A stretch of 64,000 nt of DNA from Ignavibacteriales bacterium (lineage in GTDB: Bacteria; Bacillota; Clostridia; Acetivibrionales; UBA4821). Position 1 is the stretch's first letter. Each line of letters begins with the position of its first letter. The translations under genes and the position numbers were made by a program. The notes below the pieces were generated by a model. It made no database searches. It was not told the origin of the DNA and saw only the letters and a list, made by a program, of their open reading frames with translations. This document shows, piece by piece, positions 6,357 through 22,786 of this stretch. Location of the stretch: the NCBI GenBank assembly GCA_050260055.1, contig JBLNBO010000042.1:17761-81760 (forward strand), read 5' to 3'.

Positions 6357-6968
6357 CTAAATAGTATTAAATACTTTTTCTAAATCCATTATAAATTTTG
6401 TATATTTATATTCATCATCCGGAGTGCTAAATTCTTTAATAGAAATACCGCATTCATATCTGTCATCAGATGTATCTTTTAATCTTACAACTTCTCCAGT
6501 CATAGTACAGACTCTTGATGGATATGACAATAACAGTTTAACATCCAGCAGTTCATTCTTCTTATATAGTTTCTTTGTCTCCAGAAGCAATCCGCGCCTG
6601 CTTATATTTATAATTGATGCAGGCTGTTTTTGTTCAGTAAATGCCATTATCCTCATATTTATTCTCTTAGCTGCTCTTGCATTATAAAACCGCTCGATGT
6701 CTGTTTCCGGCTTGATTATAAGTGTTAAGCCTTCACTTCTGATATCAATTCCGGTAATTCTTGCTTTAAAATAATATTCTAAATCACCTTCAGGAACCCT
6801 GCAGGCAATTACATCATCTATAAGTAATCCAGTTTTCTCAAAATCTCTTGATATTATTAGAAATATCTCCTCGTCTTCAATCTTGGAGACCACGCTGTAA
6901 ACATACTGATGAACCGGGGAATAATCAATAAACAGGTATTTGTTCAAGAATTGGCAGAAATCGAACAT
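6357..6968 (-). CDS. PilZ-domain protein (putative c-di-GMP receptor)
   Basis: RINMR (RxxxR) followed by NISRRG (D/NxSxxG) in the C-terminal half. The track start at 7025 is a TTG. The ATG at 6968 has a better RBS (AAGAAAGGGA), so it is used here. Confidence 0.55.
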   Translation of the reverse strand: MFDFCQFLNKYLFIDYSPVHQYVYSVVSKIEDEEIFLIISRDFEKTGLLIDDVIACRVPEGDLEYYFKARITGIDIRSEGLTLIIKPETDIERFYNARAAKRINMRIMAFTEQKQPASIINISRRGLLLETKKLYKKNELLDVKLLLSYPSRVCTMTGEVVRLKDTSDDRYECGISIKEFSTPDDEYKYTKFIMDLEKVFNTI

Positions 6969-7076
6969 AATTTGTATCCCTTTCTTGTCAGCAAATAAAA
7001 TTTTAAGTGACAAATTTTTTCCCAACCATAACTATTATATTTATATAATTCTGCCAATTCAAGCCAAATAATAAAT

Positions 7077-9411: not shown

Positions 9412-10575
9412 ATGAGAAAAAAATTTATTAAGCTTTTATTTGTTACGACTATAATTTTCGCTTTTCTACAAATTAGCTCCTATGCAGAAACTAGTACATA
9501 CTCACATTGGGCATATGAAAATTATCTTATAGCCAAGGAAGATAATTGGCTAATAGGTGAAGACGGCGGAGGTTTTTCGTTTGATAAGGCCTCATCAAGA
9601 GAAAGAGCTATTGCAACACTGGTACAAGCATGGGAAAATGCTGTAAATAACGGTAAGACTAGCAACTATTTAAAGTCTGCACCAGCTGATACATTAAATA
9701 ACTTTACCGATGTCTCCAAGATATCACCAAGATTCAAGGATGCAGTTGCAACTGCTGTAGCAAATGGAATAATAAAAGGAGATGCAAATAAAATAAATCC
9801 TAAAAGCAGCATTACAAGGGCTGAATTTGCAGTTATACTCTCAAGAATTGTAAAATCAAATACAACTTCAGGTAAATCTGTTTTTAAGGATAATCTTCCT
9901 GACTGGGCAAAAGATGGAATATTAAAAGCTTATTCTGTCGGCCTTATAAAGGGATATTCCGATAATACATTTAAACCTGGGTTAACTATCACAAATTCCG
10001 AAGCACTTACAATGATAAAGAGATGGGCTTATGGTGAAGATATTTATACGGTTTTAAATGATACCCAGATCAAAAGGCTCATGTCATATCCAGTATATAA
10101 GGGAGAAAGTTATTTAGATAATGCCAGTTATCGAAAGGATTACAAGACAGAATTCCACCAGCTTGCGAAAGCAGCAAAAGATTATGTTACTGTAATGGGC
10201 ACATATAACTATAAGGATTTGCAGGATACCCAAAAAAGAGAGGCATTAAAAGATTTCTATCTAAAATACTCCATTTCACCAGTCAATGGTGAGAAATTTA
10301 TTAATACATATATAGATGATATCATTAAGAACAAAAGAGTAAAAACTACACGATTTTTATTAAGCAGTTCCACAATATACAAGGATGGCAAATATAAAGC
10401 AACGCGCATCAAAGGAATAGAAGAGTCCGTATTGCTTGGAGGCGTACCAGAAAGTAAAAACATTAATGTTGGTAAAAAATATCAGCAAGATATAGAATTA
10501 ACCATTGTGAAAAGTTTAGACAAAACAACTTTACTTTTTGTTAACAATCTTTCAGAGCCTATGCTTGTTAAATAA
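9412..10575 (+). CDS. S-layer homology (SLH) domain surface protein
   Basis: Signal peptide, then three SLH-like repeats (e.g. FTDVSKISPRFKDAVATAVANGIIKGD...ITRAEFAVILSRI and FKDNLPDWAKDGILKAYSVGLIKGYSDNTFKP). The C-terminal domain is shared with the next gene. Confidence 0.65.
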   Translation: MRKKFIKLLFVTTIIFAFLQISSYAETSTYSHWAYENYLIAKEDNWLIGEDGGGFSFDKASSRERAIATLVQAWENAVNNGKTSNYLKSAPADTLNNFTDVSKISPRFKDAVATAVANGIIKGDANKINPKSSITRAEFAVILSRIVKSNTTSGKSVFKDNLPDWAKDGILKAYSVGLIKGYSDNTFKPGLTITNSEALTMIKRWAYGEDIYTVLNDTQIKRLMSYPVYKGESYLDNASYRKDYKTEFHQLAKAAKDYVTVMGTYNYKDLQDTQKREALKDFYLKYSISPVNGEKFINTYIDDIIKNKRVKTTRFLLSSSTIYKDGKYKATRIKGIEESVLLGGVPESKNINVGKKYQQDIELTIVKSLDKTTLLFVNNLSEPMLVK

Positions 10576-10613
10576 TTTGTTATTATAATTTTTCTTATAT
10601 ATCTCTAAATAAA

Positions 10614-10660
10614 AAAGCTGGAAAATGCTATAAAAGCTGATATTCCAGCTTTTATTTTTT
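10614..10660 (+). terminator. Intrinsic terminator
   Basis: AGCTGGAA (10616-10623) pairs with TTCCAGCT (10643-10650), followed by TTTTATTTTTT. Confidence 0.7.
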
Positions 10661-10927
10661 TAATTTAAAGTTTTATTTATTTTATTTTTATTTCTATTTT
10701 TAACTCTTGAAAAATTTGGTAATTATGATATAATATTAACGCATATTTGATGTTACAATATAAGATTTTTATCCTTGCAATAATAATTGCGGGGAACGTC
10801 CAAAAAAAGTGTACATATGATTAAACACAGTAAGTTTAGTAGTTTCTTGGGACGTAACAGGTGTTCTCAGCACAGCGGAATCATCCATGTAGGCACCCAA
10901 AAAGATGTTTAAAGAGGAGGAATTCAA

Positions 10928-12073
10928 ATGAAAAGAATTGCAAGTTGGACGTGCGCAGTGTTTCTATTCGTTTTGGCTTTTACAGCCATAAACTCTCCCC
11001 CTGCCTATTCAGCAGGAAATGTTAATATGGCCATAAATGGCAGTATCGTGGACTTCCAAGGTCAAGAACCTTTTATCGATTCTGCCACCGGCAGAACCAT
11101 GATTCCGCTTCGGATGGTTGCGGAAAAAATGGGCGCTCAGGTTTCATGGGACGGAATTGACACTGCATTAATCACAAAAGACGGTTTGACAATTTCAATG
11201 AAGGTTGGTTCGAATGCTCCGTTAGTCAACGGCAGTGTGAAGTATCTGGATGCTCCTGCCAAACTGGTAAACGGCCGTACTATGGTACCGGTTAGATTTA
11301 TCAGTGAAGCAATGGGATGTCAGGTTGAATGGAATGCTAATACCGGCTGTGTCAATATCATAACCAATGGTAACGTCGTACCGGCACCGCCAATCCCTAA
11401 TCCACCTGAATCAGCACCATATATTCCAAACCCCAGCCGCCAGCTTGTAACTCCGCGCGGCATGCTGCCAAACGAGGAAAATATTCAGAAGTCGCTGACT
11501 CAGGAAGATTTCGCCAGGCTTCGCAGTTATACCATTCGCGGCGCAAAAGTACAAAAAGATTTAGACATCGCACCTCCTGAGCTAGCAGCAACGTATACCT
11601 TTAACTTTGATACCTTCAACCCAGACCGCAGGCAAATTTACTTTAATGCTGTGAATATTGTAAATAATGGCTTTACCTTTGACTATACTAAATTTACTAG
11701 CCAAGCTTATACTGATGAATTTACAGAAAATAACTTCAAGGTCGGCAATTATAGCGCTAGTGAACTGGCTAACTTTAAAAAATATGTCACTAATAAAGTT
11801 GCCAGCAAGCTTCAGATAAAGACATACTTGCTGACTGATAAATTTCTGTTATATCAGGCTTCGCCCAAATACACAGCAATTAGAGTAATGTACATCTTTT
11901 ACCAATCAAATGGTACAAAGCTAGAAGAGCCGGGTTCATCTATCGGAAAATGGTATAAACAGGACATTGACCTATTGTTTGTAACACCCTTAGGCACCCC
12001 TCCTGGAAATACTACGGGGGTAATATATGTCGGTATGCAGCCACTTAGTGCTCCGCAGCCATATTTTAAATGA
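10928..12073 (+). CDS. Secreted protein with copper amine oxidase N-terminal-like (stalk) domain
   Basis: Signal peptide. TMIPLRMVAEKMGAQVSWDG and GRTMVPVRFISEAMGCQVEWN are the repeated halves typical of the Cu_amine_oxidN1 wall-associated domain. There is a Pro-rich linker, and the C-terminal domain is homologous to that of 9412..10575. Confidence 0.65.
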   Translation: MKRIASWTCAVFLFVLAFTAINSPPAYSAGNVNMAINGSIVDFQGQEPFIDSATGRTMIPLRMVAEKMGAQVSWDGIDTALITKDGLTISMKVGSNAPLVNGSVKYLDAPAKLVNGRTMVPVRFISEAMGCQVEWNANTGCVNIITNGNVVPAPPIPNPPESAPYIPNPSRQLVTPRGMLPNEENIQKSLTQEDFARLRSYTIRGAKVQKDLDIAPPELAATYTFNFDTFNPDRRQIYFNAVNIVNNGFTFDYTKFTSQAYTDEFTENNFKVGNYSASELANFKKYVTNKVASKLQIKTYLLTDKFLLYQASPKYTAIRVMYIFYQSNGTKLEEPGSSIGKWYKQDIDLLFVTPLGTPPGNTTGVIYVGMQPLSAPQPYFK

Positions 12074-12104
12074 TGTTTTATACCATATTCGAATATTTTC
12101 TTAG

Positions 12105-12142
12105 ACTGCTGTTAAATTTTATTTAACAGCAGTTTTTCTTTT
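12105..12142 (+). terminator. Intrinsic terminator
   Basis: ACTGCTGTTAAA pairs with TTTAACAGCAGT, followed by TTTTTCTTTT. Confidence 0.75.
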
Positions 12143-12266
12143 ATACAAACTACTAAAAAAATGTTATAATCAGGCGAAATATTTCAAAAATAATGTTATA
12201 ATTATAATAAGAGGATAATAATGTTAACTTCTTAAATATAAAATTATTTCTAAAAGGGTGATCTTG

Positions 12267-14444
12267 ATGAAGAAACGGGTATTTTTGCTATCTTTTGCTT
12301 TCATGATACTTTTTATATTTACAATGAATTATTCATGCTTCGCATCTGGATACGAGAATTCGTATGGTTTGACAATTAATTACGATAATAACAATTTTCC
12401 TATCGGCTTTACATCCAATGTCCAAGATACACCGCCTAGATCATCGGTACATTATCGAACTGCTATAGCCAGTTATAATATTACTGCTTATACAGATGCA
12501 AGCTGTAATAATGCTGTCGATCCCAATGGCATAACAATTATTAATGCTCCTGTTGCGTGGGATCCAAACATCTCTACGGAATATTCAGGTATTTTTCCTG
12601 GAAATATTACTCAATACTTTAACAATAATCCTACTTGTTATTTTAAAATGGTTTTATTTCCAGTTGTTCAGGCTTACTTTACCAAGCCGAATACATCGGT
12701 TGCATTACGTTCAATACCTTTAAATGAACATGTTAATCATCCAGATGATCAATGGGGTTATCATACAAATTTTCCTGGTGATAGCAGAGCATATTCTGAT
12801 ACAAATATAGTTATCGAATCCTTTAGCTGCAAGGATAGTGTTTTTTGGAGCCACCTGGATTGGATGGATGGTTCTGAATACTCTATAAACACCAGATTCC
12901 AAGAACAAAGTCTAGTTATTCCTCCTCCAACTCCTAGCCCTCGTATCACATTTTTAGAATTTGTTGGTTCACAATATACTAAAATAGAAGACGAAAAATG
13001 GGAATGCAGTAATATGCCTGTTTCTGCAACCAACGATATTCAATTTAAATATAAGATTGAAAGTAAGGCGGTACCAGTAGCATCATATAACGGTCAAAAT
13101 CCTAGAACACCTGACTTTATAGTTGCAATTTACAAGAAAGACCCTTATTCTGATAATTATATAGATCGTAAAGATATGCTTACCTCACCTTCCCCAGTAT
13201 ATGAAGCATCTGCCAGAAGATATCTTGCTCCTAATACTGGTACTAATGGTCGTTCAGCCAGCTGTTCTGAAGTTATCAATGTAGGTACAGGCTATACTGC
13301 TTCATTTAATTTGGATACTTCCACTCTCACGCCTGGTAAATATAAGGTGAGTTTGGTTATTAATGACCCAACTAGCCCAACAAATCATGGAATTGAACTC
13401 TATGTTCCCCAGAGGCACCATGCCGAATTTACATTTACTATCGGCAGTGGTTTAAATCTTGCTATTACTGGCATTACTGCTTCAAGCCCAAATCTTTTAC
13501 CTGGGCAAACATATACCGCAACTGCAAAATATAGTGTATCAGGCTCCTTCCCTGCCGGAGCAAAAGTAACCGGTTTAAGAAAGCTTCCTGCACCAGTGGA
13601 TACAACAGTAAATAATCAATTTGCTGCCAATTCTACTTCAGGAACCGGGCTGTCACCATCCGCAGTTCCTATGACAGAAGGAAATAACTATATATTTCAA
13701 TTCCCTTTTACTGTTCCTGCTAATATTCCTGTCGGTGACAAAATTACCTTAAGGGCCGAAATAATACCTGTAGATAATACTGTTGTTGAGACCATCCCAT
13801 ATGATTCCAACCCTGCGCTAACTGATAACGTAAAAGAAGTTGAGTTGGAGGTAATTAGTGATAGCGCAGATACAGCTGGCTATTTGAACGTTGGAATTCT
13901 GCCAGCGTCAGAAATGCTTAAATATTTTAAAGATCAGGTCAGAGTAAATTCATATTGGTATCCTATGGGAAACAGCAACTTCACTGATTGCTCCTGGGAT
14001 CCTCAAGCTACCAATCCTGTAAACTCTTCCGGCACAGCTTATCTTGGGGAACCAACTGTTAATATAAAAACTCAGAGCGTCAGTGGAACGACTACCTTAT
14101 CCGGTGATACAAGCAAGTATCACGCAGGCTCTCCTCCAACCTATGAGTTGTATTGCGCTAATACTGGTAGTAATACACTAGTTGAACGCTTTGAAGATAC
14201 GGATAACGACAAAATCCTTGATAAATATTCTGATGCCGATAGCGATGGTACTCCTGATAAAGATGAAATCATAGAATTAAGCTGTCAGACAGATTCTCAT
14301 ACCGCCAATCATCAAAACCAATTAGATTTTGGGACCAATCCAAACCATGACCATAATTCACATAGCCATGGCGGTACCAGCTTTGGAAACTTCAGCGGTC
14401 CTGATGAAGGCGGCTGCACTAATATTGGAGAAGATTACCCATAA
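12267..14444 (+). CDS. Large secreted protein of unknown function with acidic Asp-repeat and His-rich C-terminus
   Basis: The ATG at 12267 (MKKRVFLL..) has RBS AAGGGTG, whereas the track start at 12258 is a GTG. It has a signal peptide. The C-terminal DTDNDKILDKYSDADSDGTPDKDE resembles TSP3-like calcium-binding repeats. The tail is HTANHQNQLDFGTNPNHDHNSHSHGG. Confidence 0.5.
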   Translation: MKKRVFLLSFAFMILFIFTMNYSCFASGYENSYGLTINYDNNNFPIGFTSNVQDTPPRSSVHYRTAIASYNITAYTDASCNNAVDPNGITIINAPVAWDPNISTEYSGIFPGNITQYFNNNPTCYFKMVLFPVVQAYFTKPNTSVALRSIPLNEHVNHPDDQWGYHTNFPGDSRAYSDTNIVIESFSCKDSVFWSHLDWMDGSEYSINTRFQEQSLVIPPPTPSPRITFLEFVGSQYTKIEDEKWECSNMPVSATNDIQFKYKIESKAVPVASYNGQNPRTPDFIVAIYKKDPYSDNYIDRKDMLTSPSPVYEASARRYLAPNTGTNGRSASCSEVINVGTGYTASFNLDTSTLTPGKYKVSLVINDPTSPTNHGIELYVPQRHHAEFTFTIGSGLNLAITGITASSPNLLPGQTYTATAKYSVSGSFPAGAKVTGLRKLPAPVDTTVNNQFAANSTSGTGLSPSAVPMTEGNNYIFQFPFTVPANIPVGDKITLRAEIIPVDNTVVETIPYDSNPALTDNVKEVELEVISDSADTAGYLNVGILPASEMLKYFKDQVRVNSYWYPMGNSNFTDCSWDPQATNPVNSSGTAYLGEPTVNIKTQSVSGTTTLSGDTSKYHAGSPPTYELYCANTGSNTLVERFEDTDNDKILDKYSDADSDGTPDKDEIIELSCQTDSHTANHQNQLDFGTNPNHDHNSHSHGGTSFGNFSGPDEGGCTNIGEDYP

Positions 14445-14473
14445 TCTAGAATTATATCTTTATACTATATAAA

Positions 14474-14520
14474 TAAAAAATATCCCGATTGTTTAACAAC
14501 AATCGGGATATTTTTTATTT
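14474..14520. terminator. Bidirectional intrinsic terminator between convergent genes
   Basis: ATATCCCGATTGTT (14480-14493) pairs with AACAATCGGGATAT (14498-14511), flanked by an A-run and a T-run. Confidence 0.8.
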
Positions 14521-14545: not shown

Positions 14546-16429
14546 TTACCTTTGTTGAGAGCTGTAATCGTTTAGTGCAGTCCAGTCAAGGTTATAAAAG
14601 AATACTGCATCTCCTCCTAATCCACCTTGAGCCTTGCCCTTATTAGTGAAATGATAAATATTATTACCAGCCAATACATTAGGAGCAGCAGAATCAAGCG
14701 TACCTTGAATATCAAAGGCAACTTTTATCAAGCCTTTCTTCTGTAATGTGTTAAGCTTGGCAATCTGTTCCGGTGTAGTATATTGAGCCGGATTAATATT
14801 TGAGGGATAGGCTTTAACATTCGGCGGTAAATAGTATACAAAGCTCCACTTTTTTACCTCTTCATTAGCATTAGTAGAAACTAATGTAATTTGCTTCTGA
14901 ATCGTTTCAGTCCCTGGTATTGTTTTAGTAGGATCATTCCTGTTAATAATAATCGGTGAATACTGTGATCCCCAATATACATAATTTGATAAAGGAATAT
15001 TGTATTTTCTATTATTGACTTCATCATAATATAATTTTATCGACTGCCCATCGCAAGTATAGCTTGGAGTAATTTTTATTGAACTGAAATAGGCGCCAGC
15101 ATCCGCTATAGGAGCACCATCAAAATCAGTAGAATCTATTGCGAACTCGAGCATATATCCCAGTGAAATATGTCTGTTATTAGCTTGCCTGTTGGTCTTA
15201 TAAGGCATTTCATTAACGCCAAACCCTACTGCTGGCACAGCATTTTTCCAATAGATATCCAGAACCTTATTTATTTTAAAATTATTTAATTTAGGCTGTT
15301 TGACATTAAAGTTTATATCACTTGGCAAGTTCTCAGCGGGTATACCCGAGCCGGGTGGTATAATTTTTTCTGTATAACTTTTATCATTAAAATCCCATGC
15401 ATTCACTACGCTGATAGTACCACCCTGGGATGTTGAGTTCGGTTGAGGTTCAGAAAACAACCCATAACTTTTAAGTTGAAACTTAAAAGTCCATTTTACT
15501 ATATCGCCATTATTTCCACCTGAAGGGGTTACCTTTTCTACTGTACATCCAATATCCCTTATTTCAGAAATACTAGAAGCATTAGTACTAGTATTAGCAA
15601 TTTTCATATCAGGATCATCAAAGTTTAAATTATTATCAGCAACACCTACACTTCCAGTATGCCTTATTAAATCTATATTAGCATCTCCTGCATCTCCACT
15701 AATTTTAATTCTTAATTTTTTGGTATATGCACTGGTATAAAACTCTACCGTATTCGCATCATTATAATATGTAGCAGTTGTTGCGCCTCCAAAATTTCCA
15801 TTGAATTGTGTAACATAAGGAGAAGTAATATCGTGATATGTCCCATTCGTACTATGAGTAGAGTCGGCGGTAAAATAATTAAATATCGGGGTATATATAG
15901 AATACTGAATACCTGCATATTGGACTTCATTGCCTTCTTGCACTATTCTGTTATTAAAAACAAAATCATTTGTATAATTCTTATCAATTACATTTCTATA
16001 TATATCTAAATTATCCTCATTACTTCTGAAGTTATAAAAATGATATCTTGACTGAGTATTCTCGCTTGCCGTATCACAATGTGCAACACATTCGCATTCG
16101 CACTCGCATTCACATTCGCATTCGCACTCACATTCACATTCACATTCACAATCACAAACACAGCAATCATCACATCCACATTGACAGCAATCATCACATC
16201 CGCATTGGCAGCAGCAGTCACTTGTAACAGCCAATAACATTGAGTCATCCTCAGTCAGTGCCAATTCATCATTTCCTCCCATATTATCATCAAAATCAAA
16301 ACCTGTAGGAAATGAAGTATTTAATAATTCTGTTTGCTCCTCACATTTCTGTTCCTGTGCAAATGCAGATAAGGGTGAATGTAGTCTCGTCATAAGAAAT
16401 ATTAAAAGTAGAACCTTATTCCCTTTCAT
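14546..16429 (-). CDS. Secreted 627-aa protein with N-terminal Cys/Asp/Glu-rich module (candidate radical SAM substrate)
   Basis: Signal peptide MKGNKVLLLIFLMTRLHSPLSAFA, then an acidic stretch. Residues 72-116 read CCCQCGCDDCCQCGCDDCCVCDCECECECECECECECECECECVAHC. The remaining ~500 aa are Asn/Thr/Tyr-rich with few Cys. It is on the same strand as, and 109 nt downstream of, the radical SAM array. Confidence 0.7.
   Translation of the reverse strand: MKGNKVLLLIFLMTRLHSPLSAFAQEQKCEEQTELLNTSFPTGFDFDDNMGGNDELALTEDDSMLLAVTSDCCCQCGCDDCCQCGCDDCCVCDCECECECECECECECECECECVAHCDTASENTQSRYHFYNFRSNEDNLDIYRNVIDKNYTNDFVFNNRIVQEGNEVQYAGIQYSIYTPIFNYFTADSTHSTNGTYHDITSPYVTQFNGNFGGATTATYYNDANTVEFYTSAYTKKLRIKISGDAGDANIDLIRHTGSVGVADNNLNFDDPDMKIANTSTNASSISEIRDIGCTVEKVTPSGGNNGDIVKWTFKFQLKSYGLFSEPQPNSTSQGGTISVVNAWDFNDKSYTEKIIPPGSGIPAENLPSDINFNVKQPKLNNFKINKVLDIYWKNAVPAVGFGVNEMPYKTNRQANNRHISLGYMLEFAIDSTDFDGAPIADAGAYFSSIKITPSYTCDGQSIKLYYDEVNNRKYNIPLSNYVYWGSQYSPIIINRNDPTKTIPGTETIQKQITLVSTNANEEVKKWSFVYYLPPNVKAYPSNINPAQYTTPEQIAKLNTLQKKGLIKVAFDIQGTLDSAAPNVLAGNNIYHFTNKGKAQGGLGGDAVFFYNLDWTALNDYSSQQR
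16082..16216 (-). repeat. Coding repeat: two CCQCGCDD units plus a (Cys-Glu)n tract
   Basis: Imperfect hexanucleotide TGY-GAR repeat on the minus strand, with 23 Cys codons in 45 codons. Synonymous TGT/TGC and GAA/GAG codons are interleaved. Confidence 0.9.
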
Positions 16430-16538
16430 TCAAATCCCCCTCGTATAAAAATATATCAAAAATATTATAATACTCTAAATTTATTATAACGCAAAATCTG
16501 CCAACAGTAAATAAATTATCAAATTGCTTTGGCAATAA

Positions 16539-17717
16539 TTAGTTTAAAGCCTCAATAAATGTAAGTTCATTGCATTTATTATGTTGAAATTTGTCATAGA
16601 GCTTATCAAACTTCTTTTTTGTTTCAATTAGAAAATTCCATTTTGCTTTATACATTGAACACACTAATGGATTACACTTTAATACGTCATTACATTGTTC
16701 ATAATTTGACGCTAAACATATTTTACATATTGTAGCACAATCACCACAACTATTATTACCTGCATGCATATTGCTTCTATAAGCATCAAAAAAGGTCTTT
16801 CTACTCTCATTATCAATAATGCCATCATATACATTTCCGAGTTTGAAGCTTCGATTGTAAAAATAGGTCCTATGGCAAGGATATATATCTCCATTTGCGG
16901 TAACTGAGCAAAATTTCTTACCTGCTTCACAAGTTTTTGGAGGAACATTAAAAGATTTTATTTTAATTAAATTCGCATCTTCATAAGGCTTTAACGAACC
17001 TGTAGATATGCATTCTTTATATACATAATCAGCAATTAGTGATAATTGTTCTATATAAATTGAAACATCGTTTTCATTCCAAGCTTCTTCATTGGATAAC
17101 ATGAATTCAGACCTTTTTACTCCAAGCTGTTTAAAGTATTTATAACTTGAAAAAAACTTAGAAATGTTATCCTTTGTAATTACTGAATGTGTATGAAAAG
17201 AAGAAGCATTTATTTTATTTTCTTCTAAAAACGTTTTTAGTTTTAAAATATTTTTTACAACCATCTCTGAAGTTAGTTTACCATTTGCAGTTATTCTATT
17301 TTTATCCTGAACCTCTGGAATCCCATCAATTGAAATTTGAATGTTGACACTTTTAGTAGTTTTATACCAATCTAAAATAAACTCTTCGAATTTCTTATTA
17401 TATATTGTACCATTCGTAATAATTGAAAAAAACAGCCCCATATTGCATTGTTTTGCTCTATCTACAACATAATTGAAAAATTTTATCATTACATCAAGAT
17501 TAAGAAGCGGTTCTCCTCCAAAGAAAGTTAACCTAAGCTTCTTCACACCGTTTTTTAACGCATTCTCAATCAAAAATTCAGCTGTCTTTTTTGCAGTCTC
17601 AAAAGACATATAGCTTTCAGTACATCTATTACCATTTTCGTAACAGTACTTGCATCGCAAATTACAATCTTCAGTAAGAATTAAATAACATGATGAGAAT
17701 GGTGAATTTTCAATCAT
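16539..17717 (-). CDS. Radical SAM/SPASM-domain maturase paralogue (anSME-like architecture)
   Basis: TEDCNLRCKYCYE (CX3CX2C at C18/C22/C25), FFGGEPLL, and a C-terminal auxiliary-cluster block CEAGKKFCSVTANGDIYPCH...CGDCATICKIC...CNPLVC. Confidence 0.85.
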   Translation of the reverse strand: MIENSPFSSCYLILTEDCNLRCKYCYENGNRCTESYMSFETAKKTAEFLIENALKNGVKKLRLTFFGGEPLLNLDVMIKFFNYVVDRAKQCNMGLFFSIITNGTIYNKKFEEFILDWYKTTKSVNIQISIDGIPEVQDKNRITANGKLTSEMVVKNILKLKTFLEENKINASSFHTHSVITKDNISKFFSSYKYFKQLGVKRSEFMLSNEEAWNENDVSIYIEQLSLIADYVYKECISTGSLKPYEDANLIKIKSFNVPPKTCEAGKKFCSVTANGDIYPCHRTYFYNRSFKLGNVYDGIIDNESRKTFFDAYRSNMHAGNNSCGDCATICKICLASNYEQCNDVLKCNPLVCSMYKAKWNFLIETKKKFDKLYDKFQHNKCNELTFIEALN

Positions 17718-17718
17718 T

Positions 17719-18804
17719 TTAAGAACTCCTTTTTGAGGGTAATTGATAATTTTTCTTTAGCAAATCATATAATTTATTTTGAAATACACAAAACTCCTCA
17801 GGTATTTCACTAAAATCTCCATATATAAAATAATTCGTTGCAAAGCAGACATAACATCTGTTTCTAATTTCCGGTTTACACTCTCTGCATTTTTTAGGAA
17901 ATATATTATAATTATTTTTTTCTTGAATAAATTCTCTTTTTTCAGCATCTACCCCTTTTTCAACATCGCCCATAATGAATAAATCGTCATCGCAAAAAGC
18001 ATTGCGGCACTTGTGGCAGGGATATATTTTCCCACTAGGAGCCGCTGAAAAACCGCAGATTCCAGCCCCGCAGCAGCTATTTATTTCATAGGGATTTGTA
18101 ACTGCACAGATTTGTTCCGTATTTGTAACAGAAAAATTCCGGCTGTGTTCGACAGTATGCTTTTGAAGCTTGACTATGTCTTGGGTTAGATACTCAATAT
18201 CCTCACTTTCCCAATAATCACTATGGTCAAAAATGCTGTAGTTGTAAAACCCCGAATAGTCATAAAGAAAAAGAAGAACCTTTGCAAAATATTTGACACT
18301 TCTTTTCTTAATAATTGATGTTAGATTCATTTTCACACCATATTTTACACTTAGAGCAACCAAATACTTCAATTCATTATAAATAGGGTTATTTCTATCG
18401 TTATATTTAATATCTGAATCTATATCGTACCCATAGGTCTGGATACTGATATGGAGCTTTGGTCCCAAAGTTTTAAAGAATTCCATCTTTTTCTCATCAA
18501 TATCTGTTTGATGAATGGATATGGAGTATATAGGGGTATTACCTTTATAATTTTTAAATCTGTCAAATGATTCCGTATATTCAATAACTTTTTTTATTAC
18601 ATCAAAATTTTCAAGTCCTTTTTTCATAACAAAAGATATCGTTGCTTTAATAACTTCTTCTGTTAATTGATTTAGAAACAAATCTACAGCTTTTCGGGCT
18701 GTATCCCAGCTCATTATCTCAGCACTATCTATCTCTTCAGAAACAACCAAAGTCAAATCCCAAAACGGTTTTGTATTCATTATTATCTGATTATCACTAT
18801 TCAT
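17719..18804 (-). CDS. Degenerate radical SAM/SPASM paralogue lacking the CX3CX2C SAM-cluster motif
   Basis: 361 aa. The position aligned to the CX3CX2C of its neighbours reads VVSEEIDSAEIMSW. A Cys-rich C-terminal block is retained (CCGAGICGFSAAPSGKIYPCHKC...CRECKPEIRNRCYVC). Its stop abuts the start of the next gene. Confidence 0.7.
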   Translation of the reverse strand: MNSDNQIIMNTKPFWDLTLVVSEEIDSAEIMSWDTARKAVDLFLNQLTEEVIKATISFVMKKGLENFDVIKKVIEYTESFDRFKNYKGNTPIYSISIHQTDIDEKKMEFFKTLGPKLHISIQTYGYDIDSDIKYNDRNNPIYNELKYLVALSVKYGVKMNLTSIIKKRSVKYFAKVLLFLYDYSGFYNYSIFDHSDYWESEDIEYLTQDIVKLQKHTVEHSRNFSVTNTEQICAVTNPYEINSCCGAGICGFSAAPSGKIYPCHKCRNAFCDDDLFIMGDVEKGVDAEKREFIQEKNNYNIFPKKCRECKPEIRNRCYVCFATNYFIYGDFSEIPEEFCVFQNKLYDLLKKNYQLPSKRSS

Positions 18805-18847
18805 ATGAGTCCCCCTATAATCATCAAAGAAATTATTGACTTCAATA

Positions 18848-18876
18848 AGTATATGTCAAAATATCTTATCATTCAA
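18848..18876 (-). promoter_or_regulatory. Sigma-A-type promoter upstream of the degenerate paralogue
   Basis: Minus strand TTGAAT (18871-18876), 17 nt spacer, TATACT (18848-18853). Confidence 0.55.
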
Positions 18877-18921
18877 GATATTTAGGTATCCATTTTACAA
18901 TAAGTCCTATATTAAAACCAA

Positions 18922-20097
18922 TTATAAATTTCTAGTATTGAAAAAAGTCATTTCATTGCATTTTTTATAATCAAGTTTGTAAGTAAGCTTATTAAATTTC
19001 TTTTTTGTTTCAATCACGAAATTTGATTTTGCCTTATACATTGAACAAACTAAAGGATTACACTTTAGAAAATCATTATATTTCTCATAATTGTAAATCT
19101 TACATATCTTACATACAGAATTATCACATTTACCGCAACTAATATTACCAACATGCATATTATCTCTAAAGGAATCAAAGAAAAGCTTTCTTTTATTATT
19201 ATCTATAAATCCATTATGTACATTTCCGAGTATTAAATTGCGGCTTGAAAAATATGCTCTTGTGCAAGGATATATATCGCCATTCGGTGCAATTGCACAT
19301 AATAATTTTCCTGCTTCGCAAGTTTTTTTACCTATTTCGCCAAAAAGTGTACCCATATTTCTATAAGGATCTAAAAGTGCTGACATAATACATTCATTGT
19401 ATACATAATCTGAAATGAGAGATAATTGTTCAGTATAAGTAGAAATATCATTTTCATTCCAATCTTCCTCATGTGAAATCTCAAATCGAGTCTCATTTAT
19501 GCCAAGCTCTTTTAAGTATTTATAGCTTGAAAAAAGATTAGATACAGTATCTTTTGTAACCACTGAATGGGTACGTAAAGAAGAAAACTTTATCTGATTT
19601 TTTTCAAAAAACTTTTTAAGCTTTAATATGTTTTCGAGAATAATTCCTGAAGTTGGCTTACCATTTACAGTTGCTCTGTTTTTATCTTGTACCTCAGGAA
19701 TCCCATCAATTGAAATAATAATGCTAACTTGTTTTGTCGCTTTATACCATTCTAAAATAAACTCTTCAAACTCTTTATTATATATCGTACCATTTGTAGT
19801 AATTGAAAAATTTAATTTAATGTTATTCTCCTTTGCTTTATCTCTAACATAATGGAAAAACTTTATCATTACATCAAGATTAAGGAGTGGCTCTCCCCCA
19901 AAAAAAATCCAACTAAGCTTTTTCATGCCAAATTTTAAAGCATTGTCAAAGGATAGATCTGCAGCCTTTTTGGCTGTATCAAAAGACATGTAGTTATTAC
20001 TGCATCTATTTGTACTTTCATAACAATACTTACATCTTAGATTACAATCTTCAGTCAAGATTAGATAGCATGAAGAAAATGGAATGACTTTATTCAT
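18922..20097 (-). CDS. Radical SAM/SPASM-domain maturase paralogue
   Basis: TEDCNLRCKYCYE, FFGGEPLL, CEAGKLLCAIAPNGDIYPC and CGKCDNSVCKIC. Confidence 0.85.
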   Translation of the reverse strand: MNKVIPFSSCYLILTEDCNLRCKYCYESTNRCSNNYMSFDTAKKAADLSFDNALKFGMKKLSWIFFGGEPLLNLDVMIKFFHYVRDKAKENNIKLNFSITTNGTIYNKEFEEFILEWYKATKQVSIIISIDGIPEVQDKNRATVNGKPTSGIILENILKLKKFFEKNQIKFSSLRTHSVVTKDTVSNLFSSYKYLKELGINETRFEISHEEDWNENDISTYTEQLSLISDYVYNECIMSALLDPYRNMGTLFGEIGKKTCEAGKLLCAIAPNGDIYPCTRAYFSSRNLILGNVHNGFIDNNKRKLFFDSFRDNMHVGNISCGKCDNSVCKICKIYNYEKYNDFLKCNPLVCSMYKAKSNFVIETKKKFNKLTYKLDYKKCNEMTFFNTRNL

Positions 20098-20123
20098 ATC
20101 CTAACTCCTAATAAAATACTATT

Positions 20124-21308
20124 TTAATTCATAGATTCGAAAAATGTTACTTCATTACATTTATTGTAATTAAAAATATAAGAAAGCTTTTCAAATTTCT
20201 TTCTAATTTCAGTTATGAACTTCCATTTTGCTTTGTACATTGAGCATACTAACGAATTACATTTTAATATATCACCATATTTTTCATAATTATATGCCAT
20301 ACAAACTATACAAGCCGCATTATCACATTTACCACAGCTGATATTATCTACATGCATATCCCTTCGATAAACATTAAAAAAGGCATCTCCACTCTTATTA
20401 TCACTAATGCCATTAAATACATTTCCTAGCTTAAAATTATTATTTGAAAAATATATTCTGTGGCAAGGATATACATCTCCATTTGGAGCAATTGCACATA
20501 ACGTTTTCCCTGCTTCGCAAATAATTTTACTAATTTCCTGCTCTTTTATGGATATTATGTTTCTTGCTTCCTCATAAGGTTTCAATGAGTTTGCTAATAT
20601 GCATTCATTGTAAACATAATCCGAAATTAGCGATAATTGTTCAATATAAATTGGAATATCATTTTCATTCCAATCTTCTTCATTTGAAAGCTTAAATCCA
20701 GGTCTGCTTATGCCAAGCTGCTTAAAATATTTATAGCTCAAAAAATGGCTAGACATTGTATCCTTGGTAATTACTGAATGTGTTTGCAAAGAAGTACTCT
20801 GTATTTTGTTTTTCTCAAAAAGCTTTTTTAGTTTTAATATGTTTTCTAGGATAATTCCTGAAATTGGTTTGCCATCTATATTTACTCTGCTTTTATCCTG
20901 AACCTCCGGAATCCCATCAGTAGAAATTTGGATATTGACATTCTTTGTAGCTTTATACCAATCTAAAATGAACTCTTCGAACTCTTTATTATATATAGTA
21001 CCATTTGTAATAATTGAAAAAAATAAACTAATATTGTACTGTTTTGCTTTATCTACAGCATAATGAAATGATTTTATCATTACGTCAAGATTGAGAAGTG
21101 GCTCTCCTCCAAAGAAAGTCAATCTAATCCTTTCAATACCCTGCTTAAATGCATTATCCAATACAAAATCCATAGCTTTTTTTGCAGTATCCAAAGACAT
21201 ATAATTATTTTTGCATCTATTAGCATTTTCATAGCAGTACTTGCACTTCATATTGCAATCTTCAGTAAGAATTAAATAACATGAAGTAAATGCAGAGGGT
21301 TCAATCAC
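20124..21308 (-). CDS. Radical SAM/SPASM-domain maturase paralogue
   Basis: GTG start with AAGGAG RBS. TEDCNMKCKYCYE, FFGGEPLL, CEAGKTLCAIAPNGDVYPC and CGKCDNAACIVC. Confidence 0.85.
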   Translation of the reverse strand: MIEPSAFTSCYLILTEDCNMKCKYCYENANRCKNNYMSLDTAKKAMDFVLDNAFKQGIERIRLTFFGGEPLLNLDVMIKSFHYAVDKAKQYNISLFFSIITNGTIYNKEFEEFILDWYKATKNVNIQISTDGIPEVQDKSRVNIDGKPISGIILENILKLKKLFEKNKIQSTSLQTHSVITKDTMSSHFLSYKYFKQLGISRPGFKLSNEEDWNENDIPIYIEQLSLISDYVYNECILANSLKPYEEARNIISIKEQEISKIICEAGKTLCAIAPNGDVYPCHRIYFSNNNFKLGNVFNGISDNKSGDAFFNVYRRDMHVDNISCGKCDNAACIVCMAYNYEKYGDILKCNSLVCSMYKAKWKFITEIRKKFEKLSYIFNYNKCNEVTFFESMN

Positions 21309-21412
21309 AACAGTACTCCTTATTTTTTTGCATAATATAATTTTATTTACATCTCTTAAAAATATTATCTTAGATGAATTATATCAAAGTTATAGAACAA
21401 CTATTTTACATA

Positions 21413-21441
21413 ATTATATGCTAAAATATCTTATTCTTCAA
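21413..21441 (-). promoter_or_regulatory. Sigma-A-type promoter
   Basis: Minus strand TTGAAG (21436-21441), 17 nt spacer, TATAAT (21413-21418). Confidence 0.6.
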
Positions 21442-21488
21442 TAATCCTTTTTTTACTATGGAAGAACTTGAAAAGTTTAGAACATTCC

Positions 21489-22676
21489 TTAATTCTTAGT
21501 CTTATAGAATACTGTTTCACTACAGCTATTATAATCAAGTTTATAAGCAAGCTTATCAAACTTCTTTTTTGTTTGATTAATAAATTTCCATTTTGCCTTA
21601 TACATTAAACAAGCAAGCGGATTACATTTTAATATGTCATTATATTTTTCATAATTTAATACCATACATATCTTACACATAGTATTATCACATGTACCAC
21701 AACTAACATTACCTACATGCATATCATTTCGACAAGCTTTTAAAAAAAGCTCCCTATTACTGTTATCAATAACACCCTCAAATATATTTCCAATTATAAA
21801 ATTACTGCTTGAAAAATATGCTTTATCACAAGGATAAATATCACCTTTTGGATTAATTGCACATACTGTTTTTCCTGCTTCACAAGTATTCTCATGAGCT
21901 TTATCAGTTTTCATAGCAATTAAACCTTTTGCATTTTCATAAGGTTTTAATGAACATGATGATACGCATTCCTTATATACATAATCAGCAATTTGTGATA
22001 GTTGGTCTATGTAAATAGAAATATCATTTTCATCCCAATCTTCTTCATGTAACAACTCAAAGGAAATATCATTTATTATGCCAAGATGCTTAAAATATTT
22101 GTAACTAGAAAAAACCTTCGGTATAGCCGCCTTCGTAACAACTGCATGTGTATGTAAAGAAGAAATATCTATTTTATTTTTTTTAAAAAGCGTTTTTATT
22201 TTTAATATATTTTCTAGAACAATTCTCGAAGTTGGTTTACTATTTATAGTTATCCTATTTTCATCCTGAACTTCAGGAATTCCATCAGTTGAAACTTGTA
22301 TACTAACTTGTTTTGTAGCTTTATACCATTCCAATATAAATTCCTCAAACTGCTTATTATATATTGTACCATTTGTAACAAGCGAGAAATTTGATTTAAT
22401 GTTGTTTATCTTAGATTTATCTACAACGTAACGAAAAAAGCTTATCATTACATCAAGATTAAGAAGTGGCTCTCCCCCAAAAAAAGTCCATTTAAGACTT
22501 TTAACACCATGTTTTAAAGCATTATCAAATAAAAAATCTGCCGACATTTTTGCAGTATCAAAAGACATGTATCTCTTAGTACACCTATTGGCATTCTCAT
22601 AACAGTATTTACATCTCAAATTACAATCTTCGGTGAGAATCAAATAACATTTGGAAAATACCGTTGTCGCAGTCAT
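21489..22676 (-). CDS. Radical SAM/SPASM-domain maturase paralogue
   Basis: TEDCNLRCKYCYE, FFGGEPLL, CEAGKTVCAINPKGDIYPC and CGTCDNTMCKIC. Confidence 0.85.
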   Translation of the reverse strand: MTATTVFSKCYLILTEDCNLRCKYCYENANRCTKRYMSFDTAKMSADFLFDNALKHGVKSLKWTFFGGEPLLNLDVMISFFRYVVDKSKINNIKSNFSLVTNGTIYNKQFEEFILEWYKATKQVSIQVSTDGIPEVQDENRITINSKPTSRIVLENILKIKTLFKKNKIDISSLHTHAVVTKAAIPKVFSSYKYFKHLGIINDISFELLHEEDWDENDISIYIDQLSQIADYVYKECVSSCSLKPYENAKGLIAMKTDKAHENTCEAGKTVCAINPKGDIYPCDKAYFSSSNFIIGNIFEGVIDNSNRELFLKACRNDMHVGNVSCGTCDNTMCKICMVLNYEKYNDILKCNPLACLMYKAKWKFINQTKKKFDKLAYKLDYNSCSETVFYKTKN

Positions 22677-22757
22677 ATCAAGGGCTCCTTATTTTTATTT
22701 CTTTTCAATGCAGAATACAGGCTTCTTATGAAATGCTAAGTCTTAATTGTTTACCTT

Positions 22758-22786
22758 ATTATATGGCATGATACCCTATTCTTCAA
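22758..22786 (-). promoter_or_regulatory. Sigma-A-type promoter
   Basis: Minus strand TTGAAG (22781-22786), 17 nt spacer, TATAAT (22758-22763). Confidence 0.6.

Follow-up and report, generated by a model that had tools for sequence, protein, structure and literature searches.

To our knowledge, the thioether chemistry of radical S-adenosylmethionine (rSAM) enzymes with a SPASM domain has hardly been described outside short peptides, the exception being one small enzyme subunit, QhpC. Maturases of ribosomally synthesised peptides with post-translational modifications (RiPPs) hold the leader of their substrate via an N-terminal domain called the RiPP recognition element (RRE), and the anSME/AtsB enzymes, which act with sulfatases, provide a precedent for an rSAM/SPASM enzyme modifying a full-size protein before export. 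In the PapB/PapA system (freyrasin), the rSAM/SPASM enzyme PapB makes several thioethers in a core rich in Cys and acidic residues, in which the Cys sulfur is bonded to Asp at the beta-carbon or to Glu at the gamma-carbon; it accepts Cys-Xn-Asp/Glu spacings with n = 0-6 (PMC9413430). QhpD, also of the rSAM/SPASM type, acts in the cytoplasm, where it introduces three thioethers from Cys to Asp/Glu into a protein subunit that is exported afterwards (PMC7876137). The bioinformatically defined CXXX-repeat systems comprise an rSAM enzyme (TIGR04115), a target (TIGR04117) and a second maturase (TIGR04119); we found no published chemistry for these families, and a literature search on CXXX-repeat systems, on phage rSAM enzymes with Cys-rich proteins and on rSAM enzymes acting on secreted Cys-rich proteins returned nothing relevant. 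Here we analyse a 64,000-nucleotide stretch of a clostridial genome (GCA_050260055.1, contig JBLNBO010000042.1, positions 17,761 to 81,760; hereafter the window), in which an array of four rSAM/SPASM genes and one clusterless paralogue precedes the gene of a 627-aa secreted protein with an N-terminal Cys-rich module. We favour, with little more than even confidence, the reading that these genes form a dedicated protein-maturation cassette that staples the N-terminus of the 627-aa protein (the target) with thioethers, along the five steps set out below.

The cassette covers positions 14546-22676 of the minus strand, where six genes lie head to tail: rSAM/SPASM paralogues 1 (21489..22676, 395 aa), 2 (20124..21308, 394 aa, GTG start) and 3 (18922..20097, 391 aa), the clusterless SPASM paralogue (17719..18804, 361 aa), paralogue 4 (16539..17717, 392 aa) and the target (14546..16429). 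The open reading frame (ORF) layout bears out the five-gene minus-strand array, the lengths and the gap to the 627-aa gene described in a first-pass annotation made from the sequence alone. The ATG of paralogue 4 begins 1 nt beyond the stop of the 361-aa gene, and 109 nt separate paralogue 4 from the target gene, whose ribosome-binding site is GAGGGGGA. A consensus scan gave no terminator-like match in the intergenic gaps of the array, the single match within it being a short minus-strand one with a 6-pair stem (18685-18703) inside the clusterless gene.

All four enzymes carry CX3CX2C, GGEP and seven SPASM cysteines that are invariant in the alignment and follow the pattern CX12GX4C ... CX2CX4CX2C ... 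C. They pass the Pfam thresholds for Radical_SAM (PF04055; 43-53 bits versus 29.5) and SPASM (PF13186; 23.9-29.5 versus 21.5), which places them in the superfamily and in the SPASM subfamily and agrees with the rSAM motif and SPASM block read earlier in each of them; Fer4_12 is also passed by all four. Pairwise identity is 61-67% overall (the range in which paralogue 2 falls with the other three), 65-73% over the N-terminal halves and 56-62% over the C-terminal halves. The paralogy proposed in the first-pass annotation therefore stands, while its figure of about 70-80% for the N-terminal halves was slightly high and its description of the maturases as near-identical does not hold.

The target begins with a predicted Sec signal peptide (residues 1-24; 16358..16429, minus strand) made of MKGNK, a hydrophobic core and AFA followed by Q, the site V/A-x-A before QE being kept in the homologues. 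It continues with an acidic leader-like stretch (residues 25-71; 16217..16357) and with the Cys-rich module (residues 72-118; 16076..16216), the putative core or substrate. About 500 residues follow, and only three Cys lie outside the module in the whole protein. Homologues are very few: only four were found in 5.8 billion clustered proteins, all of which keep the Cys module in the same place, the five sequences being 38-50% identical overall (BLASTP). L36, F40, F44, F46, D48, N49, L65, L66 and A67 are invariant in all five; conservation to this degree would be unusual for a linker, and the stretch looks like an embedded leader or recognition sequence.

The module itself reads CCCQCGCDDCCQCGCDDCCVCDC(EC)10VAHC and contains 24 Cys, 10 Glu and 5 Asp in 47 residues (51% Cys); the count of 23 Cys in 45 residues given earlier is exact for its densest 45-residue segment. 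The homologues share the consensus CxCCCxCxCxxCxCxCxCxCVxHC, with 11-13 Cys in 22-26 residues. The repeat-expanded module of the window (16087-16221) owes its length, about twice theirs, to a duplication of 24 nt, by which CCQCGCDD occurs two times, and to an in-frame, imperfect repeat of the hexanucleotide TGYGAR (11.7 copies, 85% matches), which encodes the (EC)10 segment and could be a site of length variation by slippage. The target has no Pfam, NCBIfam or PHROG family. Foldseek against the PDB returned low-TM matches (<= 0.14), mostly to beta-sandwich (Ig-like) proteins including pilins and adhesins, and with low confidence we regard the C-terminal region of about 500 aa as beta-rich and surface-protein-like.

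Concerning the distribution of the cassette, an orthologue of the Cys-rich protein comes after the array in all six contexts that could be recovered (the window, L001, L002, L004, L007 and L009). In the window and in the syntenic locus L001 (GCA_050258375) the array lies after dgkA and consists of four active rSAM genes and one clusterless gene before the target. L002, from a Clostridiales UBA4821 genome, occupies a different chromosomal site and has five active genes, an additional N-truncated one and two clusterless genes, and L007, a Logan contig, has seven active and two clusterless genes. The contig start cuts the array of L004, leaving at least three active genes and one clusterless gene, and the contig end cuts the target in L009/L014, where two active genes and one clusterless gene precede the opening 34 codons of an orthologue of the target. 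The enzyme clade has a sharp boundary: its members are at least 51% identical and occur on about eight contigs, the next match falling to 38%, and the cassette is present in every contig of the clade whose context was examined (the same six). A scan of 185,579 GTDB species genomes found it in two metagenome-assembled genomes only, both already seen, and a metagenome scan contributed nothing beyond another copy of the L009 locus.

Fifteen more, weaker relatives of the target (78-1063 aa) came from a profile search over 1.84 billion representatives. The eight that we read (642-1063 aa) have only the C-terminal domain in common with it, a domain that ends in FYYNLDWSALDDYSTQQKW; they carry other N-terminal domains and no Cys module, and seven of them begin with an evident signal peptide. 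Two of their neighbourhoods were read, of which one is without any rSAM gene and the other (P0129) holds two unrelated ones; the latter were rejected as kin of the cassette enzymes, as they match in the rSAM core only (30-37% over about 100-150 residues). Presence and absence of the Cys module thus go with those of the enzyme array, as would be expected of an enzyme and its substrate, and the conservation of gene order and module in independent genomes argues that the arrangement is not due to chance. Among the contexts examined, no array was found without a Cys-rich neighbour or beside sulfatases or short peptides, so the neighbourhood check proposed with the first-pass annotation turned out in its favour.

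No other candidate substrate came to light at the locus. No short Cys-containing ORF exists in or between the array genes (ORFs of at least 20 aa and a six-frame Cys-density scan), and a hidden short precursor near the array was rejected on these grounds. Likewise, no sulfatase domain was found among the scanned neighbouring proteins, and neither the target nor these neighbours have a sulfatase domain or the C/S-x-P-x-R motif. The earlier observation that sulfatase genes and short precursor ORFs are absent nearby is thereby upheld by Pfam, ORF and Cys-density scans.

In a neighbour-joining tree built without bootstraps, the enzymes fall into roughly four groups, partly common to several genomes, and the enzyme that adjoins the target (16539-17717) is orthologous across loci (71% identity in L004, 69% in L002). 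These shared groups and the orthology at the last position indicate that the divergence of the paralogues is old, which argues for specialisation. A one-to-one relation of enzymes to crosslinks was rejected, since copy number (2-7 per cassette) does not vary in step with the number of Cys. As a speculation, the multiplicity of enzymes could partly reflect dosage, if single turnover, the mode in which QhpD, QhpE and QhpG work (PMC7876137), applied here.

Some members of the array appear to be degenerate. The N-truncated copy in L002 (4005-5069, 354 aa) starts after CX3CX2C, and the first enzyme of L009/L014 (L009 5284-6432, equal to L014 5095-6243) has FTGGEP and has lost SPASM cysteines (YPRASLY versus YPCHR). 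L002 also contains an unrelated rSAM/SPASM gene on the opposite strand (1368-2495, minus), between its first clusterless gene and the remaining array, with best matches to ACGX, SbtM and NirJ-like profiles, all below cut-off.

The 361-aa paralogue has a 13-residue deletion exactly at the CX3CX2C site and no GGE motif, keeps the seven SPASM cysteines and is 20-24% identical to the active paralogues. It lacks all three marks of the radical SAM superfamily (CX3CX2C, GGE and a passing Pfam score) and belongs to no family by Pfam, NCBIfam cut-offs or PHROG: PapB is its best profile at 70 bits, the TIGR04119 match is weak (25 bits, cut-off 150) and TIGR04085 gives 20.6 bits against a cut-off of 27. 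Between genomes its orthologues share 68-75% identity (78% as the mean over alignment columns) and are thus more conserved than the active enzymes (about 50-71%). The family has 9 members in 5.8 billion proteins, all within the cassette, and every cassette holds one or two copies. The distance to the next active rSAM gene, a 1-nt gap in the window and a 4-nt overlap in L001, L002 and L007, suggests translational coupling and a stoichiometric complex. The label of pseudo-enzyme given to this gene at first therefore does not suit what is the most conserved and a translationally coupled component; on this comparative evidence it appears to be a part of the cassette and not a decaying relic. It is probably a non-catalytic partner or scaffold, and the simplest reading is that it would supply substrate binding or scaffolding, perhaps electron relay.

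Concerning families of known chemistry, PapB (NF047865) is the top NCBIfam profile for all four enzymes (168-186 bits, the lowest being paralogue 1; cut-off 340), and the CXXX-repeat-target rSAM enzyme (TIGR04115) comes second (137-153 versus 350). They also match the maturase of SCIFF (TIGR03974; 110-138 versus 425), QhpD (TIGR03906; 112-129 versus 453), anSME (TIGR03942; 63-85 versus 349), the nif11-type maturase and CcpM, and more weakly the sactisynthase RumMC (64-84 bits). The PapB, CXXX-repeat, SCIFF, nif11-type, QhpD and CcpM families act on Cys-rich substrates. Membership in a curated family was rejected for the enzymes, whose scores lie below every NCBIfam cut-off; of the profile checks proposed with the first-pass annotation, those for Radical_SAM and SPASM in Pfam were passed and those for anSME and for Cys-rich-peptide maturases were missed. 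The closest solved structure is CteB (5WGG, E = 8e-30), to which the rSAM core and the SPASM domain align. The cassette enzymes begin about 12 residues before CX3CX2C and their alignment starts only at CteB residue 98; they are therefore without an N-terminal RRE domain.

The nearest enzymes outside the clade (P0042, P0046, P0051 and P0066; 34-38% identity) all lie in prophage tail regions. For three of them the neighbours are baseplate or Peptidase_G2 tail-fibre genes, followed downstream by lysis genes; the fourth sits beside SPbeta-like tail genes. In all four loci the enzyme is directly followed by a protein whose C-terminal part is rich in CxC or CxxxC motifs and in Asp: two Cys/Asp-rich proteins of 179 and 257 aa in L011 (6001-8606), one of 180 aa (24 Cys, 24 Asp) in L015 (5001-6764), one of 268 aa, also Cys/Asp-rich, in L017 (5001-7056) and one of 464 aa with 80 Cys in L016 (5001-7780). 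These enzymes resemble those of the cassette in being RRE-less, in having PapB as best match below cut-off and in their Cys-rich neighbour. They differ in occurring as one or two genes, with no tandem array and no clusterless partner, and the proteins beside them differ from the target in that the Cys part is C-terminal, a signal peptide is absent and the context is that of tail fibres and baseplates. These pairings indicate that the whole RRE-less PapB-like branch is associated with Cys-rich proteins and not with short peptides. Isolated phage genomes hold only relatives at 29% identity or less. Over the Cys/Asp-rich ORF of L017 (6250-7056) the public annotation uses the wrong frame and gives a V/I/T-rich product of 163 aa (6542-7033); databases probably under-annotate such repeat-rich Cys ORFs. 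Next to a CXXX-repeat protein of 304 aa, L011 also has a genuine TIGR04115 enzyme (400 bits).

The first-pass annotation had named the Cys/Asp/Glu module as the likely substrate of the array, and comparative genomics backs this strongly (six of six contexts, an exclusive clade and the pairs of the out-group). We likewise consider the case strong that the module is the substrate of the adjacent array, and hold the thioether chemistry of the cassette with moderate confidence.

The cassette belongs to no curated family, and its logic is like that of PapB/PapA and QhpD/QhpC. In common with the former it has rSAM/SPASM enzymes and, in the window, a core rich in Cys and acidic residues, but its enzymes score about half of the PapB cut-off of 340 and have no RRE, and its core is of the CxC and not the CX3D type. 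Moreover, a 627-aa protein with a signal peptide takes the place of the short peptide, and 2-7 paralogues with a clusterless partner that of PapB; the short precursor typical of PapB, recognised through an RRE and made of a leader and CX3D/E motifs, has no counterpart in the cassette. Like the target with its leader-like stretch, QhpC carries an N-terminal leader and is encoded together with its enzymes (PMC7876137). The cassette has neither the tryptophan context of cysteine tryptophylquinone nor a subtilisin or ATP-binding cassette (ABC) exporter, no qhp gene was found among the scanned neighbouring proteins, and its substrate is about six times larger than QhpC and has a predicted Sec signal peptide. 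CXXX-repeat systems show that Cys-periodic targets may reach hundreds of residues (304 aa in L011), and their second, SPASM-like maturase parallels the clusterless paralogue; they differ from the cassette in the period (CxxxC versus CxC) and in the signal peptide and large unrelated domain of its target. CteB, a thioether-forming enzyme of Clostridia, shares the rSAM core and SPASM domain with the cassette enzymes, whereas its residues 1-97, an RRE-like domain, have no counterpart in them and SCIFF, with about 45 aa and six Cys, is a peptide for which no equivalent ORF exists at the array. Compared with anSME/AtsB, the cassette is without the sulfatase domain and motif. Finally, RiPPs in general are released as peptides from a short precursor of leader and core, which differs from a protein of 627 aa whose domain of about 500 aa belongs to a family of its own, and the leader-like stretch gives a resemblance that appears to be one of logic only. 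What sets the cassette apart in this comparison is the large signal-peptide substrate, the CxC core, the variable tandem paralogues and the obligatory clusterless partner without an RRE.

The five steps of the favoured mechanism would be as follows. The target would be made with its Sec signal peptide, acidic leader-like stretch and CxC-type core at the extreme N-terminus. The core would emerge first from the ribosome and meet the oxygen-sensitive cytoplasmic enzymes while the other 500 residues are still being synthesised, and the RRE-less paralogues would act on it there, probably in complex with the clusterless paralogue, which would hold the substrate or relay electrons. From the residues between the Cys (Asp, Glu, Gln, Asn), hydrogen would then be abstracted at side-chain or backbone carbons, and neighbouring Cys sulfurs would be joined to these carbons, giving a dense ladder of small-ring thioethers of the ranthionine type. 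Export would finally place the protein in the cell envelope, near SLH and Cu_amine_oxidN1 proteins, where its stapled N-terminus would form a chemically inert cap. Within this scheme, the role of the clusterless partner, the timing relative to export and the final location of the target are inferred. The range of n = 0-6 accepted by PapB would cover the CE and CD dipeptide repeats of the module and, together with the Cys-to-Asp/Glu links made by QhpD, favours a small-ring ladder by analogy. Any thiols that remain in the module could possibly bind metal.

Several observations weigh against this reading. Every NCBIfam score of the enzymes lies far below the curated cut-off, so that the chemistry cannot be transferred by family membership. 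In the homologues, the residues between the Cys are Q, N, G, A, K, H, Y, L or M about as often as D or E; Asp and Glu therefore need not be the acceptor, which may be broader (Gln and Asn side chains) or a backbone C-alpha of the sactionine type. The number of enzymes (2-7 per cassette) does not track that of Cys (11-13 in the homologues, 24 in the window). The cassette has no dedicated exporter gene, though the crosslinked segment must pass the Sec channel, which small crosslinked rings might do; crosslinked QhpC leaves through its own ABC exporter and not through Sec (PMC7876137). In addition, the signal peptide of the target was judged by eye only, the AlphaFold2 models of the target are poor (pLDDT, the per-residue confidence, of 40 with 5 sequences, and of 55 with a predicted TM-score of 0.52 with 18), and no public sequencing run holding the region was found.

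The main rival keeps the same substrate and changes the reaction: sactionine formation (S to C-alpha) or a broader acceptor, formylglycine or dehydro residues as made by anSME, or C-C or S-S-type links. The variable non-Cys positions would suit a backbone C-alpha better than a specific side chain, the enzymes reach no curated cut-off, and the sactisynthase and anSME profiles match as well, if more weakly than the others (RumMC 64-84 bits, anSME 63-85). The strongest profiles and the closest structure are nevertheless those of enzymes forming non-alpha thioethers (PapB, SCIFF/CteB, QhpD), both the module of the window and the targets of the phage out-group are strikingly rich in Asp and Glu, and no sulfatase domain is present; we regard another radical reaction as unlikely, yet as an explanation to be kept seriously in mind.

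If instead the module stayed unmodified, as a metallothionein-like metal-binding or disulfide-bonded segment, the rSAM genes would serve another substrate and their adjacency would reflect co-regulation or shared ancestry. With 51% Cys in CxC and CC motifs the module does resemble metallothioneins as generally known, though no metallothionein profile of Pfam or NCBIfam matched the target even at E <= 10, and the enzyme copy number, which does not scale with the Cys count, would also be in keeping with such a segment. This is hard to reconcile with an exclusive co-occurrence conserved across two chromosomal sites, with the lack of any alternative substrate candidate (short Cys ORF or sulfatase), with the renewed pairing of the enzyme relatives with Cys-rich proteins, and with the target relatives that lack the module and have no related rSAM gene in the two neighbourhoods read, and we think it improbable. 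We give even less credence to a RiPP precursor built on a large protein, from which a crosslinked peptide of about 50-95 residues would be cleaved off as an antimicrobial, signal or metallophore, the 500-aa domain being a carrier or a separate entity. The conserved leader-like and core layout and the RiPP-maturase-like enzymes would accord with it; against it stand the lack of a protease or exporter gene in the cassette, the existence of the C-terminal domain on its own, without the module, in a family of secreted proteins, and the fusion of module and domain in all five sequences.

Returning to thioether stapling by a dedicated cassette, a bolder version would be that of a heteromeric machine of specialised paralogues around an obligatory clusterless scaffold, RRE-less and related by descent or sharing to phage-tail stapling enzymes, hence an undescribed class of maturation system; we advance this only tentatively and would not call it probable. 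The comparative evidence points to an exported protein of 570-630 aa as an rSAM/SPASM substrate, and three traits have no described counterpart: variable tandem paralogues, a strictly conserved clusterless SPASM partner and the absence of an RRE. This rare cassette, small and self-contained and limited to a few uncultured Clostridia, would bring peptide-style radical crosslinking to a whole exported protein. If so, RiPP-like logic would extend to whole surface proteins, and anaerobes, for which disulfides are no option, would gain a redox-inert extracellular substitute for such crosslinks; radical thioether stapling might then be a general means of hardening their extracellular structural proteins, beyond RiPP chemistry. 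It would also offer leader-embedded, RRE-independent stapling enzymes for protein engineering, and a handle on the unstudied pairs of rSAM enzymes and Cys/Asp-rich proteins in phage tails.

The target gene is converged upon by an operon of envelope proteins on the plus strand (9412..14444, by Pfam), outside the minimal cassette, which codes for an SLH protein (9412-10575), a Cu_amine_oxidN1-domain protein (10928-12073) and a 728-aa secreted protein with no Pfam, NCBIfam or PHROG family (12258-14444); these are possibly functional partners of the target. The SLH and Cu_amine_oxidN1 neighbours recur in L001 and are not found beside the cassette of L002. Conserved counterparts of the 728-aa neighbour lie beside the target in L001 (762 aa) and L004 (705 aa), again not in L002, and this protein has GP[DN]EGGC as an invariant C-terminal motif and a tail rich in His. 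It was considered as a split or fusion counterpart of the N-terminal domains of the remote target relatives, and rejected for want of a BLASTP match. Among these relatives, the uncharacterised proteins P0125-P0131 (640-1060 aa) share a C-terminal domain of about 400 aa with a nearly invariant end (FYYNLDWSALDDYSTQQKW) and no Pfam model. In L019 (5390-10760) the gene of P0129 is preceded by SLH and Cu_amine_oxidN1 genes, the SLH gene ending 1 nt before it. As members of the target family adjoin such genes both with and without the Cys module, a cell-envelope location of the target is likely, and the association hints at an SLH-anchored surface complex.

The cassette and the convergent operon both end at a bidirectional terminator-like hairpin (14472..14519) with a 20-bp stem and T runs on either strand. 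Upstream of the first rSAM gene lies a weak promoter-like site on the minus strand (22758..22786, TTGAAG-17-TATAAT), the number of such sites in the region being not above the shuffled expectation. A search of the window against Rfam gave no match. The window comes from the chromosome of a low-GC spore-former and has yqfD, a 7TM-HD protein, ybeY and dgkA upstream of the array, and in L002 the cassette adjoins a DUF559 gene. The array (16000-22000) is more AT-rich than its flanks, with 28-30% GC versus 33-37%, and this low GC content and the different chromosomal site in L002 are compatible with horizontal acquisition, possibly from phage.

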